Shown here piece after piece: positions 5,458 to 57,271 of a DNA stretch of 64,000 bases; positions within the stretch are counted from its first letter, which is position 1; each line of letters starts with the position of its first letter. The stretch spans positions 60,450,001 through 60,514,000 of the forward strand of contig OZ024744.1 of the NCBI GenBank assembly GCA_964016885.1. The letters are read 5' to 3'. The notes below the pieces were generated by a model. It was given only the letters and a program-made list of their open reading frames with translations, had not been told where the DNA came from and made no database searches. The DNA comes from Eledone cirrhosa (Eukaryota). Both the position numbers and the translations under genes were made by a program.

Positions 5458-5637
5458 ATATTTATTAAAATAACAGATTAAAGTTTAAGCAAAGAATTCT
5501 GTCTTCCTCCGGTTGCAACGTTTTTGAAATATCCAGTTCTGCGTTTACAGATTGACTTTGTTAGTTTCAGAAGATCCCGTTAAGGGTGAAAGCAGCGATT
5601 CTTTGCTTAAACTTTAATCTGTTATTTTAATAAATAT
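5458..5637. repeat. Fold-back element with 40-bp inverted repeats (Penelope pLTR-like); second copy at 31545-31662
   Basis: ATATTTATTAAAATAACAGATTAAAGTTTAAGCAAAGAAT at 5458-5497 is the reverse complement of 5598-5637; (TA)n nearby. Confidence 0.75.
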
Positions 5638-5704
5638 ATATATATATATATATATGAGAGTATTGAAGTTTGCTTGAAGCATTGTGGAACAATAAGTAAA
5701 TATC

Positions 5705-6134
5705 TTTAAGTCGTTTGGAAGCCTCGACAATGCAAATGGGTAAATCTCCGGGTAACAAGGTCCGGTGGTGGAGAGAGAGATGTAAGTGGGTGTACGTTGA
5801 GATGCGTGGTGTGTATAAGATGTGTGAGATGTGTAGAATGAAGGGAAGAGTATAAAGGATAGAATAAAAATAACAACACAAGAGAGAGTTACCTTGGGAG
5901 AGATTTAATAGTCCCTATATATTTCGGATTCACATCCATCAACTGGGGGGTTTTCCGGGGTGGGGGAAAAGGTTGTCTGTCGGACAGGTCCGGAATGCGT
6001 CCTTCGCTGTTTGTCTCACACATCTTATACACACCACGCATCTCAACGTACACCCACTTACATCTCTCTCTCCACCACCGGACCTTGTTACCCGGAGATT
6101 TACCCATTTGCATTGTCGAGGCTTCCAAACGACT

Positions 6135-6138
<4 letters not shown>
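5705..6138. repeat. 125-bp perfect inverted repeat with 184-bp spacer
   Basis: 5705-5829 is the reverse complement of 6014-6138; directly followed by long (TA)n. Confidence 0.9.
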
Positions 6139-6206
<68 letters not shown>

Positions 6207-6385
6207 GTCATTTTCTTTGGTAAGATGAGATAAACTCGATGCAGTTTCTTTTCACTCCTGAAGAACAGAGGATGCTCTGTTCTTCGGGAGTGAAAAGAAA
6301 CTGGATGAATTAAGGGTAGTTCAGGTAGCAGAGTATTTAAAATTCAAACTCAAGAAAGCCAAGGATAGGATATTATTTTTTTATT

Positions 6386-6642
6386 TATACATCTCTACGG
6401 CCGTTTCAACGCAGCTAGAATATCACATTCACTTGTGGTGAAATTGGAGATTACCAGTTAACAATTAACTCCATTATGTGTGCTTTGAGTTCAAATCCCG
6501 CCAAGGTTAACTTTGCCTTTCATCCTTACGGGGTCGATAAAATAAAGTACCAGTAATACACTGGTAATTTGCTGGCCTTGTGCCAAAAGTAGAAACAATT
6601 ATGTGTGCTTTATCCCAACTGTATCTCTTCAGGAAATATATA
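6386..6642 (-). ncRNA. Type I hammerhead ribozyme motif interrupted by a SINE in stem II
   Basis: Minus strand: UAUAUAUUUC-CUGAAGA-stem II-GAAA-CGGCCG-UA-GAGAUGUAUA; 10-bp stem I, palindromic stem III, GUA triplet. Confidence 0.8.
6487..6597 (+). mobile_element. tRNA-derived SINE (B box to 3' end)
   Basis: GAGTTCAAATCCC B box; TSD ATTATGTGTGCTTT at 6473-6486 and 6598-6611. Confidence 0.92.
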
Positions 6643-6704
6643 GAATAAAATAACAATAAATTAATATCATAAGACAAATATCAGGAAAAAGGCAAGACTC
6701 AAAG

Positions 6705-7115
6705 TATTTACGCAGGCAGTTAAGATTTGAAGTCTAAATTTAGCATAAGCTTGTACAAGGTTGTCAAACATGCAAGTTTATAAATTTATGAGTGTATTTT
6801 TTTTTTTTTTTTCAGAAAAATATGTTGAATCTAGGAATTGGTTACTGCAGGGGTTGTTAAAAACTTTTCCTACAAATTTAGGGCAGTATGTTCAGTTATT
6901 TATGAGAGAAAGATTTGAAATATTTAGTAGATTTTTTTCATTCATCAATGTCTCATGCATATATTTTTCTTCTATGCCTGCTGTAACTAATTCCTAGTTT
7001 TAACATATTTTACTGAAAAAAAACACTGATAAATTTATACACTTGCATGTTTGAAAACCTTGTACAAGCTTATGCTAAATTTGCACTTTAAATTTTAACT
7101 GCCTGCCTAAATGCT
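6705..7115. mobile_element. MITE-like fold-back element with ~145-bp imperfect TIRs
   Basis: AGGCAGTTAAGATTT...AAATTTAGCATAAGCTTGTACAAGG...CTAGGAATTGGTTAC is mirrored in 6975-7110. Confidence 0.8.
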
Positions 7116-7159
7116 CCATATTTTGAATCTTCCCATTTTTTTAAACATTCAGAGAGATG

Positions 7160-10276: not shown

Positions 10277-13200
10277 TCACATGAAAACAGTTTGGCAGAG
10301 TTTTTTGGGCCAGTGGACTCTTCGACCGGAACGGGTCGTGGTCTTGTATGTAGGTGAAGGTGGGGCAGAAGGAGCAGGTGTATGCACAAGAGAGAAAGAT
10401 TGGGGTATTTGTGGCTCGGGTGTATGAGCGTCATTGTGTGCCCTTTTTAGTCTATCCACCGAAATTGTCTCTCTGGACCCCTTAATGTCTACAGTGAAAT
10501 GTTTGTCAGTACGTGATAACACACGGTAGGGTCCAGAGTACGGTTGTGTGAGGGGTGGAATAACCGCATCGTTTCTGACGAATACATGGGTCCACGAGGC
10601 AATATCCCTCGGGACTGCAGCTTTAATAGTTTGTTTCCTAGTATTCATGGGCGGTAAGTCCTGAAAATAGGAGTGCAAACAAGATACGTAGGAAACAGGG
10701 TCCTGGAAAGCAAGATCAACAGGGGCAAGCATTTGCCCAGGCAACGCTAGAGGAGCACCATACAGTAATTCGGCCGGAGAGAACCTAAGGTCCTCCTTTA
10801 TTGATGACCGAATTCCTAACAACACAATAGGAAGGTACTCGCTCCAACGTTGAGAGTCTGGATAGACGCGAAGAGCGGCCTTTAATTGGCGGTGGAATCG
10901 TTCCACCATTCCGTTTGAAGCAGGATGATAAGCTGTGGTCCGAATCCGTTGAGCGCCAATGATCTTTGTGAGCTCAGAGAAAAGATGAGACTCAAATTGT
11001 CTACCACGGTCTGTGGTGACTGTAGTTGATACCCCAAAGCGGGTAATCCACCCTGATACCAGGGCACGCGCTACAGTCTCAGCAGTAATATCTTTTAAAG
11101 GGATGGCTTCAGGCCATCACGAAAAACGATCGATACAGGTCAAGAGGTACGAATATCCACTACTGAATGGCTAAGGTCCAACGATATCAATGTGGATGTG
11201 TTGAAACCGAGCATCTGGAGTACTGAAAGTACCAAGTGGAATCCGGATGTCTGTGGATTTTAGATCTCTGACACTGTGTGCAGGAACGGCACCAGACAGT
11301 AATTTCTCGCCTCATATTGGGCCAGAAGAATCTAGCCGTTATAAGCTTTACTGTGGCAGAAATTCCTGGGTGAGAAATGCTGTGCAAAGCAAGGAACACA
11401 ATTCGACGGTGAGTTTCAGGAACAAATGGTCGTGGTGAATCCGTAAATACATCACATAGAATCTGCCTGTCGGTGGTCGACAAGGGCAGATATTTGAAGA
11501 TACAAGTCGCAAATTCGGCAGAAAGAGTATCCAATAATTGTGGTGCAAGTTGGTCTGCAGCTGAACGACCTAAGTCAATCTCCTGGGATGACGAGATGGA
11601 GCTGATTGGCAAACGTGACAATGCGTCTGCAGCTATGTTATGCGAGCCAGCAATGTGCTGGATATCATTTGTAAATTGCGAAACGTAATCCAGGTGCCTT
11701 GTCTCTCTGGACGAATATCTGTCGGCTTTAGCCCTCAAAGCGAAGGTCAGAGGTTTGTGGTCGGTTAAAACAGTAAAATTTTTCCCCTCAAGAATATGAG
11801 AGAAATGTTTCACCGACAGATATATGGCTAATAATTCCCGCCCAAACGTGCGTTTCTGCTGGTTTCAGCTTCCTTGAAAAAAATGCCAAAGGTTGTTGGT
11901 TTCCAGCATTGTACAGCGGTATCAGATGCATCAACGCAAAGCGAAAGCTTGGCCTCTGGTACCGGGTGAACTAGCAAAGATGAACTAGTGAGTGCTGTCT
12001 TGGCAGTCTGGAAGTCCTGAAGCTGTCCTTGTGTCAAGGAAATATCCTCATTCTTCTTACGACGATTTTTCAATATGTCAGTAAGGGAAGATAGCAAATT
12101 AGCACAATGAGGAATGAAACACCTATAGAAATTGATTAGGCCTAAGAAGTGACGCAACTGGTGAAGTGTAGTAGGCGGAGGTAAATCATGTATGGCTTGA
12201 ACTCGCTGAGGGAGCGGCCTAATACCTTCGGCGTCGATGAGCTAGCCTAAAAAATTTAGCGAAGTGGAACCAAAAACACACTTTGCGGGATTCACACGAA
12301 CGCGGTAATCCTGAAGTCGCCGAAATAAGAGATGCATGTGGCGCATATGCTCTTCCCGAGAGTAACTAGCGACGAGAAGATCGTCTATGTAAGCATAAAC
12401 GAAGTCCAGACCACGAGTGACTTCGTCTATGAACCGCTGAAAAGTGCTAGCGGCATTCCTGAGTCCGAAAGGCATGGTCAAAAATTCGAAGGATCCGAAA
12501 GGAGTTGTAATCGCCGTTTTCGGAATATCCTCCTTCCTGACCGGAATTTGGTGGTAGGCTCGCACTAAATCTAGTTTTGAGAAAATCTTACAACCCTGCA
12601 ATGAAGATGCGAAATCCTGGAGATGGGGTATGGGATGCCTATCAGGGACAGTCATAGAATTTAACCTCCTATAATCCCCAGTGGGTTTCCAGTCGCCGGA
12701 AGTCTTGGGCACCATGTGTAACGGTGAAGCCCAAGGACTCGTAGATGGGCGAATAATGCCCAGCTGCAGCACATGGTCGAACTCGGACCGTGCTGCCTTT
12801 AATTTGTCCGCCGGTAAGCGGCGTGGACGCGAAAACACTGGAGCACCGGTGGTGGAAATGAAATGTTCAGTTGAGTGTGTTGGCTCAGTGACTCGAAAAT
12901 TTCAGTGAGCTCCGGGAAAGAACCTAATAACGAATGGTAGGCGTCTCCAGTAGCACCCATGAAGAATATGGGCTGACTGTTGGAGCATTGGCTTTCCGGC
13001 CACGAATTGAAAAACTGGTGATGTCATCCACCAGACGTTGGCCACGGACGTCCACAGTCAAAGAGAAGTTGTGGAGGAAATCCGCTCCTAAGATAGGGTA
13101 TGGCAAATCGGCAACCGTAAAAATCTACTTAAAATCCCTACGAAGATTTAGGAATTTGAGAGAAAGCGAGATTTGTCCGTACGTCTTTATAGACGAGTTA

Positions 13201-27862: not shown

Positions 27863-27939
27863 ATACATCAAATATAATCGTAATTGGAGGCTACAAAGAT
27901 GGAGGCTGCAAAGCTCTCAGCATCGTAGCTGATATTCAC

Positions 27940-29500
27940 AACCTCCCGGCGTAAGCAGTTGAAGGCATTCCTCATGTCAAGCTTGACAATGAGGTGTCTG
28001 GAGCCCCTGGATGCTGGTTCCGGGGGGCAGCTATTGAAGTACTGCCTGGTTGCATGTGCGGCCCCCTCACAGCCACCGGACACGGCAACACCCAGTTGCA
28101 TCGGACTGAACTCCTCACCCAGTTCTGGTGTTATGGACCTGCAGACCACCTTGGCAGCCAGCCTCCGGAAGACATTGCCAACAGCGATGGGGCGTATGCC
28201 ACCCTCTTTATTCCTGAGAGCGGTGAGGCTAGCCGAAAAAAAGACGCCTCAGGCGTAAGGGTCCAGGGTGCCATGGATGAGCCTATTGGTGAGCGCCACA
28301 ATTGCACTCAGAAGGCGGCGCCCGGCCTCAGCGGAGAGGGGGAATAGCAACTCTTTGTGGTGGCCTGGTCGGAGACCATCAGCACCTCTGCTGCTGCTAG
28401 CTGGGAAGGACTTGATGGCGGACATAATGTCTGTGTCGGAAGCCACAAGCAGCAAGTGGAGGTCGGATGGGGGTATGGATCTGAGATCAGCGGGTGGCTC
28501 AGGGTCCTTGAGTCGCAGGGCAGCCAGGACCTCCTCGGTGGATTGGAGTCAGTGTCCTCTGAGGCAACCACTCTGACTGCGGCCGAGACATCACCCATGA
28601 TTAATTTAGCATTTACGCGGTCACGCAAACGCTTGGCGCTGGCCTCAAGGGTAGAGGATTGGGGGTACCCGAGGGTGGGGAGTGTGGTGTCCCTAGGCAC
28701 GCTTGGAATGGGCGCTTGCCGAAGGACGAAATATTGACCTTGACGAAGGCTGCTGTCAACCAGCCGCCTCGATCAGCGCCAGAGCTGGGAAGGCCGAGGG
28801 CGAGTGGGGTGAAATAAAAGAGTCGTTCCCAGACGCTGGCTCGATTGGAGTCCAGGGCGCTCTCAATCGAGGAAGCGAGGGCATTGGCTACCAACACCCG
28901 GGCCGCTCTCGGGATCCTGAGTGGGATCTTCCGGAGCCGCCTGAACCGAGCGATGCTGACCAGCGAGGCTTGGACGTCAGGAAAGCTCGCTGTCTCATCT
29001 GGTGGTGTGCCAGACGGCCGTGGCTGGACAGATGAGAGGAAGAGGCAGTTTCTGCATCTCCACGCTGCGAGGGCACTGGAGGCTCGACGTGTCAAGCCAA
29101 CACAGGTGAGGTGGTGGAAGCAGCCGCACCCCAAACAGTTCCGGCCCCTCTTCCGTCTGTTAGTGGTGCTGCAAGTGCTGCAGGTGTCGGCTTGGGGGGA
29201 TGGTGGGGACTGGGGCACCGAGCGGCATCAGGGGTGAGTGTTTGGCGTGTGTGGGTGGAAGGGAAAGTGCTGGGCCTCATAGCTCCCCTACATCAGATAT
29301 AGAGGCGTCAGAAGACAAGAGAGAAAAGAAGGGGGTGCATGGAGGGGACACACAAGAAGATAGAATGTTAGCAAATGAATGAGTGAATGGATGAATGTAC
29401 AGAGAAAAAAAGTGGGGGTGGGGGTGAGAAAACAGAGAGTTGTTCCCAGCGGAAAGACCCAGAGTTCAGCACGCACACATGCGAGCATGTTAGCAGTTTC
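27940..29500 (-). mobile_element. CRE-like (RLE-type) non-LTR retrotransposon, 5' half: N-terminal PHD finger and start of RT
   Basis: GADGLRPGH, GGIRPIAVGNVFRRL, QLGVAVSGGCEGAAHA, KLDMRNAFN; C4HC3 at ~29045-29180; frameshifted, GC-rich. Confidence 0.8.
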
Positions 29501-40528: not shown

Positions 40529-40717
40529 AGGGCGGTGGATTGGCAGTATCGGTAGAGAGTCGGACGCCATGCTTTGACGCATAGAGTTACGTCCCTTGCC
40601 ATTCTGAGTTCAAATCCCGCCGAGGTTAACTTTGCCTTTCATCCTTACGGGGTCGATAAAATAAAGTTCCAGTAATACACTGGGGTAATTGCTGGCCTTG
40701 TGCCAAAAGTAGAAACA
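40529..40717 (+). mobile_element. Full-length tRNA-derived SINE
   Basis: A box TGGCAGTATCGG, B box GAGTTCAAATCCC, central GCCTTTCATCCTTACGGGGTCGATAAAAT; 19-bp TSD at 40510-40528 and 40718-40736. Confidence 0.95.
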
Positions 40718-54098: not shown

Positions 54099-57086
54099 TT
54101 AGAGATGCCTACTGGCAAGGCGGGTCTTCTCTGTTACTGAGTACCGCCAAAGGTCTCGGTCCAGTGACATTGTCTTGGAGAGGTGTAAGTGTGTGAGGTC
54201 GGAGTTTATCAGCTCGTCCCAGGTTTTTCTAGGTCTGCCTATTCCGTGGCTACCGTCTATCTTTATTGCCCTGCACTTTGTTATACAGCTATCGACTTTC
54301 ATGCGCATCACGTGTCCATACCAACGTAGCCTTCTCTCGAGTAAACAACATCTGATCCCTCTTATCTCTAATTTTTTCCTTAGTTCGTTTATGCTTTGCC
54401 GTTCACGTATATTACTGTTACACATCCAGCGGAGCATGCAAGCTTCGTTCCTCTCTAGTCTGCGTATATCCTCTGCACACAATGCCCAGGTCTCACTGCC
54501 ATGCAGCATTGCTGTTCGTATGCAGGCATCGTACAACCTGCCTTTCATTTTTAGGGAGAACCCTTTAGCAACTAATAGTGGTATAAGCTCTCTGAACTTT
54601 TTCCAACCAGTTCTGACTCTAGCTACAGTACTTTCAGAGCACCCTCCCCCACTGCTGATTTTATCGCCCAGGTAACGGAAGCTGTCCACTATTTCTATAG
54701 AACCCTCTGCGCAATTGAAAGAGCTAGTATTTTGTGGGCACTTGCTGCTACTTATTGCACCAGAACACCGGCCACATATAAAATGTATGTTCTTAGTTAG
54801 CTTACCTGTGATCCCACTACATCTTTTATGCACCCATACTTTGCATTTAGGACATAAAATGGAGTTTCTACCTACGCCTTTCCTACACACCGAGCACGAC
54901 CATTTCCCAGAAGGGACCGCCGCCTTGTTTTCTTTCCTACAAACTAGAACTTTGGTCTTAGCCAGGTTAATTTTAAGTCCTTTTGACTCTAGGCCGTGCT
55001 TCCATGTTTGGAATTTCTTCTCTAGCTCGGCCATTGATTCCGCTATGAGTGCCAGGTCGTCTGCGTATAGGAGTTCCCATGGGCAGCCTGTCTTGAACTC
55101 CTCTGTTATAGCCTGAAGGGCAATAATAAATAGTAGGGGGCTGAGAACAGAGCCCTGATGGACGCCAACTTTTACGCTAAACTCTTCACTATATTCGTTG
55201 TTAATTCTAACCTTGCTGACTGTTTCTTTATACATGGCTTGTATAGCCCTCACAAGCCATTCGTCAACGCCTAGTTTTCTAAGAGCCCACCAGATAATGG
55301 AGCGGGGGACTCTGTCGAAGGCTTTCTCCAGGTCGACAAAAGCTAAGTAGAGGGGTTTACCTTTAGCTAGGTACTTCTCCTGTAGTTGTCGTACTATGAA
55401 AAGAGCGTCTGTGGTGCTTTTGCCTGACACAAACCCGAACTGCATTTCATCTAGGTCAATTCTCTCTCTGATTAGTTGCGCTATTACTTTTTCCGTGACC
55501 TTCATGACCTGGTCGATTAATTTAATGCCTCTATAGTTACTCCTATCTAGGGCGTCTCCTTTACCCTTATAACAGTTAACGATGATGCTGCTATGCCAGT
55601 CCTTCGGAACAACCCCATTCTGTACGACTTGGTTAACTATGCGGGTGACCATGGTGTGTCCCACCGTGCCAGATGCCTTCAGCATCTCAGCAACTATTTC
55701 CGAAGGCCCAGCCGCCTTACCCGTCTTCATATCCTTGATTGCCTTACTTATTATACTCCCCTCGAGTAACACTGCTGGTCCCTCTATTGGGTCGATATGG
55801 GGGAGACTGTCTTTCTCCCATTTATTCTCCTCATTTAGTAGCCTTTCATAGTGACACTTCCAAGCTACCTTCTTATCAGTGTCGGTGATGGCAAGTATGC
55901 CATCATCGTTAAGTACACACTTCTCCCCGACAATATCACGGTTTTCCTTGACGCATTGCCTAGCAATCCTGAACACCTCACGTTTTTGGTCATCGCGTTG
56001 TAGAACATGCTTGAACTTTCTTTCCTCAGCTTCCCTTCTTGCTAAGTACACTTCTCTCCTAGCTTCCCTCCTGGCCACTTGATAGTCTACTCTACTTCCC
56101 CCATCCCGCCATACTTTCCAAGCCTGCTTTTTGGCCTTAATTGACCCCTCCACCTTACTGTTCCACCACCATGTTACTCTCCTCCTGCCTACAGGCCTGC
56201 TCCAGCCACAGACTTCGTCTGTCGCCAACAGCAGGTTTGCTTTCAGAAATTCCCACTGTCCCTCTATATTGTCCGACTCTAGATGCTCTTCCTTACTGTC
56301 GAAAGCATCAAGTAATATGCTTTGAAATTTATTTCTGGCTGTGGGGTCCTTTAGCTTCCATATTTTCCTCCTGAGGATAGTCCTCTTCTGCTGTCGAGTA
56401 CGTCTCGTCCTGACTATGAGGTCGCTAATTATCAGTCTATGTTGGGAGGTGCATTCTTCATGGGGGAGGGATTTAGTGTTTACAACAGACACTCTGTCAC
56501 GTCTTCTGGTAAGGATATAATCTACCTGGCTTGTATGTTCCCCGGATCTATAGGTGATCAGGTGATTGTCACGTTTTTTGAAGTTAGTGTTACAGATAGT
56601 TAGGTTATTTGCATCACAGAATTCCAGGATTCTGGAGCCTTCCTCATTTCTAGTACCAAACCCATAGCCTCCATGGATTTCGTCGTAGCCGTCACAATGT
56701 TGTCCAACGTGACCATTTAGGTCGCCTGCAATAATTATATAGTCACTGTCAGATATTTGGGAGGTAGTTAGCAACAGTGTCTCATAGAATCTGTCTTTTA
56801 TAGTGCCGGGCAGTCCGGATTGGGGTGCGTACGCAGATATTACTGTCACCGTAGTTCTATTGAGGACAAGTCGTATTTTAATTATTCTGTCGTTCACTCT
56901 ATTTACGTCTATTATCTTATCTGCCCACTTTTCTGCTACCATGATTCCTACTCCACCCAGCCCATCGTCGTTTCCCACCCAGAAAAGCTTATAACATCGT
57001 TTTTTACCCTCAATGAATCTAGCAGACCCACCCCTCCACCTGGTCTCTTGAATACAACAAACATCGACCTCCTTACGTTCAAGCAT
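54099..57086 (-). CDS. RTE ORF2: AP endonuclease plus reverse transcriptase with inserted PHD-type finger
   Basis: IQETRW, SAYAPQ, GDLNGHVG, VDYIL, SQHRLI; NYRGIKL, DLEKAFD, QGSVLSP, YADD, FRYLG; frame stays open upstream to ~57194 (FRVGTINVGTL). Confidence 0.95.
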   Translation of the reverse strand: MLERKEVDVCCIQETRWRGGSARFIEGKKRCYKLFWVGNDDGLGGVGIMVAEKWADKIIDVNRVNDRIIKIRLVLNRTTVTVISAYAPQSGLPGTIKDRFYETLLLTTSQISDSDYIIIAGDLNGHVGQHCDGYDEIHGGYGFGTRNEEGSRILEFCDANNLTICNTNFKKRDNHLITYRSGEHTSQVDYILTRRRDRVSVVNTKSLPHEECTSQHRLIISDLIVRTRRTRQQKRTILRRKIWKLKDPTARNKFQSILLDAFDSKEEHLESDNIEGQWEFLKANLLLATDEVCGWSRPVGRRRVTWWWNSKVEGSIKAKKQAWKVWRDGGSRVDYQVARREARREVYLARREAEERKFKHVLQRDDQKREVFRIARQCVKENRDIVGEKCVLNDDGILAITDTDKKVAWKCHYERLLNEENKWEKDSLPHIDPIEGPAVLLEGSIISKAIKDMKTGKAAGPSEIVAEMLKASGTVGHTMVTRIVNQVVQNGVVPKDWHSSIIVNCYKGKGDALDRSNYRGIKLIDQVMKVTEKVIAQLIRERIDLDEMQFGFVSGKSTTDALFIVRQLQEKYLAKGKPLYLAFVDLEKAFDRVPRSIIWWALRKLGVDEWLVRAIQAMYKETVSKVRINNEYSEEFSVKVGVHQGSVLSPLLFIIALQAITEEFKTGCPWELLYADDLALIAESMAELEKKFQTWKHGLESKGLKINLAKTKVLVCRKENKAAVPSGKWSCSVCRKGVGRNSILCPKCKVWVHKRCSGITGKLTKNIHFICGRCSGAISSSKCPQNTSSFNCAEGSIEIVDSFRYLGDKISSGGGCSESTVARVRTGWKKFRELIPLLVAKGFSLKMKGRLYDACIRTAMLHGSETWALCAEDIRRLERNEACMLRWMCNSNIRERQSINELRKKLEIRGIRCCLLERRLRWYGHVMRMKVDSCITKCRAIKIDGSHGIGRPRKTWDELINSDLTHLHLSKTMSLDRDLWRYSVTEKTRLASRHL

Positions 57087-57127
57087 TTCTACAACCTCGT
57101 TAGCGCGACCCTTTAGGGTGCCTACAT

Positions 57128-57271
57128 TTATGGTACCAACTCTGAAGTTTTGGATTGCGTTTGGAGGGTGGGGGCGGGGGGAGATAGGGTTATGTTAGCC
57201 ATCCGCGGACGAAACAAAGAGGAGTGCTCGCATTCTCGTCCACGAGGTGAATTTGACTTTAACTTTGGCAT
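57128..57271 (-). CDS. Candidate short RTE ORF1 (47 aa) overlapping the ORF2 frame
   Basis: ATG at 57271 to TAA at 57128 overlaps the ATG-less start of the APE domain. Confidence 0.45.
   Translation of the reverse strand: MPKLKSNSPRGRECEHSSLFRPRMANITLSPPAPTLQTQSKTSELVP

Follow-up and report, generated by a model that had tools for sequence, protein, structure and literature searches.

A hammerhead ribozyme motif with a long stem II, interrupted by a SINE, in a decayed repeat copy of Eledone cirrhosa

The window, i.e., the whole stretch of 64,000 nucleotides (64 kb) that was analysed, contains a hammerhead motif at positions 6386-6642 on the minus strand. It lies within a copy of a multi-copy repeat, and its stem II holds a SINE flanked by a target-site duplication. 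The features at the locus are the following:

6632-6626, minus strand: first half of the hammerhead core, CUGAAGA
6407-6396, minus strand: second half of the core, GAAA-CGGCCG-UA, comprising GAAA, a short stem III and the GUA cleavage triplet
6633-6658, minus strand: 5' strand of stem I, with 10 bp beside the core, a bulged C at 6643 and a U-rich extension
6371-6395, minus strand: 3' strand of stem I with an A-rich extension
6611-6625, minus strand: 5' strand of basal stem II
6408-6486, minus strand: apical part and 3' strand of stem II, 79 nt, with one copy of the target 14-mer inside, common to the paralogs
6487-6597, plus strand (antisense to the ribozyme): tRNA-type SINE, 5'-truncated, 111 nt, B box kept and A box lost
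6473-6486, plus strand: first copy of the target-site duplication, 14 nt
6598-6611, plus strand: second copy of the target-site duplication, its first 5 nt matching the SINE's ATT-type tail
6242-6303: near-perfect hairpin of 29 bp with a 4-nt loop, 3' of the ribozyme
6205-6690, minus strand: copy of the host repeat, approximate extent from contig depth, ~360 nt without the SINE
6138-6204: (TA)n run that adjoins the repeat at its 3' end, its other side bordering a MITE-like element

The canonical core reported in the first-pass annotation is present: on the minus strand the type I core letters CUGANGA, GAAA and NUH stand in register at a three-way junction, both stems I and II flank the core, the 5' and 3' ends of the motif fall in stem I, and the putative cut follows GUA, between 6396 and 6395. 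Stem I was said to have 10 bp, and all 10 of its 10 positions (6642-6633 with 6395-6386) are indeed paired, two of them as G.U; past the bulged C at 6643, a low-complexity extension, U-rich on one side and A-rich on the other, pairs at 14 of 15 positions, and with this AT-rich part stem I counts 24 pairs. Basal stem II (6625-6611 with 6408-6422) is the long helix that had been described, but of its supposed 15 bp 14 are pairs, G.U in five cases, and the remaining position is an A x C mismatch. The 10.1-11.1 pair that closes stem II on the core is G.U, in place of the usual G-C; the G10.1-C11.1 closing pair of type I hammerheads is highly conserved, though not universal, and no paralog change at 6408 occurs among the differences listed. 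As it stands, the stem II domain measures 218 nt; taking out the SINE and one duplicate leaves 93 nt, in agreement with the ~90 nt expected beforehand. In the monomer form stem III consists of 2 bp and a 4-nt loop. As to features for tertiary contact, the motif has a single bulge in stem I, at 6643, and is without a short loop 2.

In the 64-kb window, a descriptor scan that permitted a stem II of up to 300 nt yielded three sites at which stems I and II have no fewer than 4+4 pairs; of these, 6386-6642 is the only one with long stems (10 and 14 pairs). Among 300 dinucleotide shuffles of the window, made in 1-kb blocks, 55 contained a site with 4+4 pairs, two a site with 6+6 pairs and none a site with 8+8 pairs or more, against the 10+14 observed. 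The minus strand of 6365-6665 folds better than its shuffles (z -2.42; 1 of 100 as good), and the plus strand of the same interval folds no better than shuffles (z 0.16). On the minus strand the 40 helix positions comprise 30 Watson-Crick pairs, eight G.U, one A x C and one other combination; the resulting strand bias (8 G.U vs 1 A x C) has p=0.02, in a register that was chosen with G.U allowed. The hammerhead motif at 6386-6642, with its long stem II, is real, as had been proposed.

Searches elsewhere gave no further examples. A metagenome scan for the two core halves at a spacing of 80-110 nt returned 109 loci with core-like matches, in which stem I never exceeds 4 pairs and none of which forms stems I and II. 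One recurring group among them, with a 95-nt gap, looked like a family at first and was rejected as chance, as it does not form stems I and II. Rfam gave no match for the whole window at the gathering level and no hammerhead match for 6200-6750 at E values up to 10, a blank that we tentatively attribute to the 218-nt insert. Weak Rfam microRNA matches in 6200-6750 were discarded, as they merely reflect the 29-bp hairpin.

These results bear on the idea that the locus is a fold-back repeat at the DNA level, of MITE-like kind, whose inverted arms enclose hammerhead-like words by chance. The region is rich in fold-back elements, the extension of stem I is of low complexity, and the missing Rfam match would fit, but the three-way junction is exact and keeps every core letter in register, none of the 300 shuffles contains an 8+8 site and the pairing favours one strand, all of which argues against a chance enclosure; the Rfam blank itself would be expected with an insert of 218 nt. 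We regard this explanation as extremely improbable.

The repeat that carries the motif was traced in contigs of four of the 23 listed runs (X1, X4, X9 and X12), aligned to 6208-7158 at no less than 80% likeness; X1 represents organism A, and may be the same sample as the window, and X4 organism B. In X1 the depth is 90-1084 in the bins of 6208-6463 and 6624-6687 and 36 in the bin of 6688-6719; at the 3' limit of the repeat the alignment began at 6208, and the last 3 nt are assumed. The family is multi-copy in both X1 and X4 and ~12-15% diverged from the window copy, and in its flanks a single shared difference recurs in as many as 31-34 contigs of X1 and 10-13 of X4. X9 and X12 (organisms F and G) have little or no cover of the flanks at 80% likeness; such contigs show presence, not absence.

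Across 121-187 nt, five paralog pieces among those listed differ from the window copy at 14-25 letters. The end point is exactly 6486 in two of these pieces and 6473, 6472 or 6464 in the remaining three; none of the five runs into the SINE, and at least 79 nt of the arm are therefore common to copies that likely lack it. A joint that skips the SINE is not found among the 15 joints listed out of 502, so that the 5' half of the paralogs can be presumed, rather than seen, to be tied to their 3' half. Since two of the listed pieces run from the ribozyme arm into the hairpin at 6242-6303 and end there, this hairpin, whose loop and two flanks share one 4-mer, likely forms part of the same repeat family. 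The (TA)n run starts 181 nt past stem I, which places the 3' end of the repeat in (TA)n and the ribozyme within a few hundred bases of it. The (TA)n may not be the target of the repeat, however, because the run also borders a MITE-like element.

The neighbourhood is a nest of repeats. A MITE-like element with 100-nt arms (90%) and inner arms of 47 nt lies directly 5' of the repeat (6703-7115) and is itself multi-copy in X1 and X4; fold-back elements occur at 5692-6151 (138-nt arms, 97%) and 5458-5637 (perfect 40-nt arms). An uninterrupted LINE frame of 1031 aa with AP endonuclease, RT and PHD finger lies at 54099-57194 on the minus strand; decayed copies of the same kind of LINE are many in the window, and this LINE is a candidate partner for the SINE. 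At 10277-12901, also on the minus strand, there is a broken Gypsy-type pol with pieces of RT, RNase H and integrase. GC-rich frames at 27868-29227 (minus strand) gave no Pfam match; by eye they resemble pieces of a CRE-type non-LTR element. An ORF of a Penelope-like element (PLE) was not found in the window: 12 chosen long ORFs gave LINE or Gypsy domains or nothing in Pfam, and the short frames near the motif, read by eye, showed no RT/GIY-YIG. Neither does the window hold a second copy of the repeat, i.e., a pLTR or a partial tandem or inverted arrangement.

The paralog variants are unphased, and the figures given here derive from 40 listed differences, 82 further rows existing, some of them uncounted. 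All four listed differences within 6414-6486 are letters that the majority carries both in X1 (59-94%) and in X4 (72-100%). When these four letters are introduced, the predicted fold of the apical arm changes from a branched structure of -21.8 kcal/mol to an unbranched rod of -29.7 kcal/mol, a result that random sets of four letters equal in 2 of 1000 cases. Because the majority letters give this rod, the long stem II arm is likely a trait of the family, ancestral and structured, as judged from modelled folds. At each of these apical sites the window copy has a letter other than that of the paralog majority, in the direction that weakens the rod, and it is therefore an old, decayed copy of a repeat family found in two related organisms.

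Other variable positions behave less uniformly. The paralog letter at 6413 (76% in X1, 48% in X4) breaks a pair of basal stem II unless its partner changes, and that partner change is not among the differences listed. With the letters at 6413 and 6410 added, six in all, the arm is predicted at -25.4 kcal/mol, which 67 of 1000 random sets equal. The letter at 6410 turns a G.U into an A-U, and that at 6378 (52% in X1, 20% in X4) turns an A x A mismatch of stem I into an A-U. The two sides of a stem III pair, 6402 and 6399, vary at matching shares (11%/15% in X1 and 43%/44% in X4), as a swap from G-C to A-U would produce. No core change occurs among the 40 listed differences, which for the 3' half corresponds to p=0.31 and is not significant alone.

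The stem II insertion had been described as a ~125-nt antisense SINE cargo. The SINE is indeed antisense to the ribozyme, but its body is 111 nt long, ~125 nt being the body plus one duplicate. Besides this copy, nine sites in the window match the SINE, with 92-96% identity for the four closest, and its target duplicates are identical at 14 of 14 positions, for which reasons we consider it younger than the host repeat copy. Fuller copies near 40606 and 37422 carry a head, ~70 nt further 5', whose words we take to be A- and B-box-like, as in a tRNA-derived SINE. As the copy at 6487-6597 starts at the B box, it likely lacks a promoter of its own. In the contigs the depth of the SINE runs into millions, i.e., a very high copy number, ATT-type tails appear behind 6602, and loose ends occur at 6486 and 6602. 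The 5-nt match between tail and duplicate is what priming on a short match would give. With its A/B-box head in full copies, short-repeat tail, target duplication and very high copy number the element resembles tRNA-derived SINEs in general, from which this copy differs in being 5'-truncated. We presume that it is akin to octopus SINEs. The available part of the MetaSINE paper does not allow the family to be named.

In the first-pass annotation the SINE was said to spare the core. The empty motif measures 132 nt, of which 89% of the sites are non-core and 48% lie in apical stem II; a random insertion would thus miss the core 89% of the time, and with one insertion event this sparing gives no sign of selection. 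At 8-12% drift, a range estimated from the alignment of paralog contigs, 29-15% of copies should still have all 15 core nucleotides intact. That the RNA could still fold with the SINE looped out stands in so far as the pairs of basal stem II have predicted probabilities of 0.86-0.98 in such a fold, but the best predicted fold is inactive. The insertion in the arm is likely a neutral accident, later than the repeat itself.

The palindromic CGGCCG of stem III had been taken to suggest dimeric cleavage. In the window copy an 8-nt palindrome at stem III has a predicted duplex energy of -14.1 kcal/mol, and the strand-swapped active dimer is predicted at -133.3 kcal/mol against -123.4 kcal/mol for two monomers, ~10 kcal/mol lower. 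Another letter, however, occupies 6401 in 85% of the depth in X1 and 69% in X4, and the palindrome is therefore a minority state in the family; with this other letter the stem III duplex drops to -3.1 or -4.6 kcal/mol and the gain from dimerization to ~3 or 0 kcal/mol, so that the suggestion does not extend to the family. The active dimer lies 2-2.5 kcal/mol above the best cofold, which is inactive, and the monomer with a stem III of 2 bp and a tetraloop lies 4.5 kcal/mol above its misfolded best fold. In the best predicted folds of both monomer and dimer the CUG of the core is paired into stem III (with a probability of ~0.9 in the monomer), which leaves them inactive. Cleavage as a dimer, cleavage as an assisted monomer or no cleavage may each apply to this motif, as far as modelling goes. 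For the axolotl hammerhead HHR_Amex2, with a 2-bp stem III and a tetraloop, partial cleavage as a monomer and better cleavage as a dimer are described (PMC7229834), and for an Anolis PLE hammerhead cleavage is described only with the element's protein present (PMC11167929).

A strong form of the first-pass reading would be that the window copy itself is a working, selected ribozyme, tolerant of the antisense SINE in its arm or even making use of it as cargo, and that the palindrome lets it cleave as a dimer. Its core is intact, its basal helix is predicted to be stable with the SINE in place, and the predicted energies favour the active dimer over two monomers. Yet the private letters of this copy weaken the apical rod, the palindrome is the minority state, the copy has no tandem partner in cis, the site lies within a nest of repeats, and the best predicted folds are inactive; moreover, an intact core is no rarity at this level of drift (15-29% of copies), and it is such copies that get noticed. 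We consider a selected role of the window copy highly unlikely.

The explanation we favour, and hold to be probable, combines three points: the locus is one decayed member of a multi-copy repeat whose type I hammerhead motif has a 93-nt stem II, predicted to be an unbranched rod in the family; this repeat likely forms the 3' end of a PLE or of a derivative; and a SINE later entered the arm of this copy, likely without consequence. In RNA of active family members, stems I and II would form on either side of the core, and cleavage would follow GUA (6396/6395), close to the element's 3' end. Such cleavage would likely be slow, because stem III has only 2 bp and there is no short loop 2 for the usual loop-loop contact, and a second copy or the element's protein would assist it, as reported for other PLE hammerheads. 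The window copy would have integrated beside (TA)n and then drifted, after which a LINE-driven SINE insertion, primed on the 5-nt tail match, would have duplicated 14 nt of stem II. Since the second duplicate can take over the pairing in the apical helix, the basal helix would persist, with the SINE branching off to the side. We infer the PLE link, the order of these events and the neutrality of the insertion, and all folds are predictions, while the sequence, the duplication, the multi-copy state and the paralog letters are direct observations.

A rather unlikely alternative origin of the host repeat is that of a solo monomer of a ~360-nt non-LTR retrozyme-like element that would propagate as a small circular RNA, with the long stems I and II and the downstream hairpin as its rod-like body. 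Animal retrozyme monomers are described as ~300 bp long (Cervera and de la Pena, 2020, PMC7229834), close to the ~360-nt unit without the SINE, and the repeat is strongly paired and without an ORF; like these elements, it is a non-coding unit of a few hundred bases that carries a type I hammerhead, with a 2-bp stem III and a tetraloop as in axolotl HHR_Amex2. Unlike them, it is a single unit with no tandem second unit in the window, its long helices do not follow the canonical 6-bp/4-bp type I form, and two paralog contigs continue for ~1.7 kb and ~0.9 kb upstream of the shared part. The two origins shade into one another, as the preprint of Li et al. (2026, 10.64898/2026.07.22.740005), in its available part, derives such retrozymes from the pLTRs of PLEs and counts solo monomers among them.

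Under the favoured explanation of a PLE-derived repeat, one comparison is with the minimal and variant hammerheads of metazoan PLEs, which are mostly solo genomic copies from truncated PLEs and have a weak stem III with U-rich 5' and AU-rich 3' flanks, and for which dimer-type cleavage of low activity was proposed (Cervera and de la Pena, 2014, PMC4209133). The motif studied here is likewise a solo copy with a weak stem III and U-rich/AU-rich flanks. It differs in its arm, which at 93 nt is ~4x the span of the descriptor published there (3-7 bp in stem II and up to 10 nt in its loop, i.e., at most 24 nt), and in having, in the register used, neither an unpaired extra base after position 9 nor a G10.1-C11.1 pair. 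A palindromic stem III/loop 3, as in the minimal hammerheads, is present in the window copy but not in 85% (X1) and 69% (X4) of the paralog depth. The literature, as far as available in part, mentions no such long-armed PLE hammerhead; the figures and one supplement file of PMC4209133, Lunse et al. (2017) and the 2017 Terminon paper fall outside it and may hold longer variants.

A SINE in the arm of a dead repeat copy is an ordinary event, and the noteworthy part is the arm at the level of the family. It is conceivable, though we would only tentatively propose it and do not expect it, that animals contain an overlooked class of active long-armed PLE-type hammerheads in which a stem II rod of ~90 nt is under selection and can carry cargo such as a SINE. 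If so, descriptor searches that limit stem II to ~24 nt miss long-armed hammerheads, and some PLE families scored as hammerhead-less or 'half core' would possess one. If the arm cleaves, natural animal hammerheads carry a stem II of ~4x the published PLE descriptor span, genome counts of such ribozymes are too low, and the claim of hammerhead-less PLE clades needs a re-scan. The empty and SINE-filled forms provide a natural pair for probing how much cargo stem II tolerates.

Within cephalopods, the part of the literature covered contains no PLE hammerhead besides Hydra-1_Obim. In octopus, Naiad elements use (TA)n as insertion site, and one of them bears the label 'half core' (PMC8557442). Naiad membership of the host repeat was considered and found no support: six short repeat motifs gave two matches, located in coding-like sequence that belongs to other families, and by eye the Naiad 3' ends as printed are different. 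These ends (Naiad_Obim and Naiad_Ovul, File S5 of PMC8557442) appear, by eye, to have hammerhead blocks in a permuted order, i.e., stem III/cut site/stem I, GAAA, CUGAUGA, which resembles the type-SGC order of PMC10085705; a partner strand for stem II was not found in them. In the available part of the data, neither motif search nor comparison by eye gave any likeness in sequence between the host repeat and the 3' ends published for octopus Hydra and Naiad elements. Because of this and of the lack of a PLE ORF, membership of a PLE clade is not claimed; by analogy, the host repeat is likely the 3' end of a PLE or of a non-autonomous derivative, and we file the motif as a PLE-like hammerhead variant with clade membership unproven.

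The Hydra clade of PLEs offers the nearest architectural parallel. Its members are described as inserting in (TA)n and as carrying near the 3' end a hammerhead whose stem III has 3-4 bp and a loop of 0-3 nt; G.U closes stem II in Penelope-13_HM and Penelope-17_HM (Craig et al., 2021, PMC8557442). The motif at 6386-6642 differs from them in its 93-nt stem II, the longest among the 34 listed Chlamys/Hydra rows being ~53 nt (PLE-X1_sMoe, not of the Hydra clade), in the 29-bp hairpin that follows the ribozyme and in the window's lack of an RT/GIY-YIG ORF. It shares with them the type I core near the 3' end, the (TA)n neighbourhood and the G.U that closes stem II. In Hydra-1_Obim of Octopus bimaculoides, the core and stem II begin with the same letters as in the window motif, and with this element, as far as it is published in the available part, the architecture is shared, although the flanking sequence is not.
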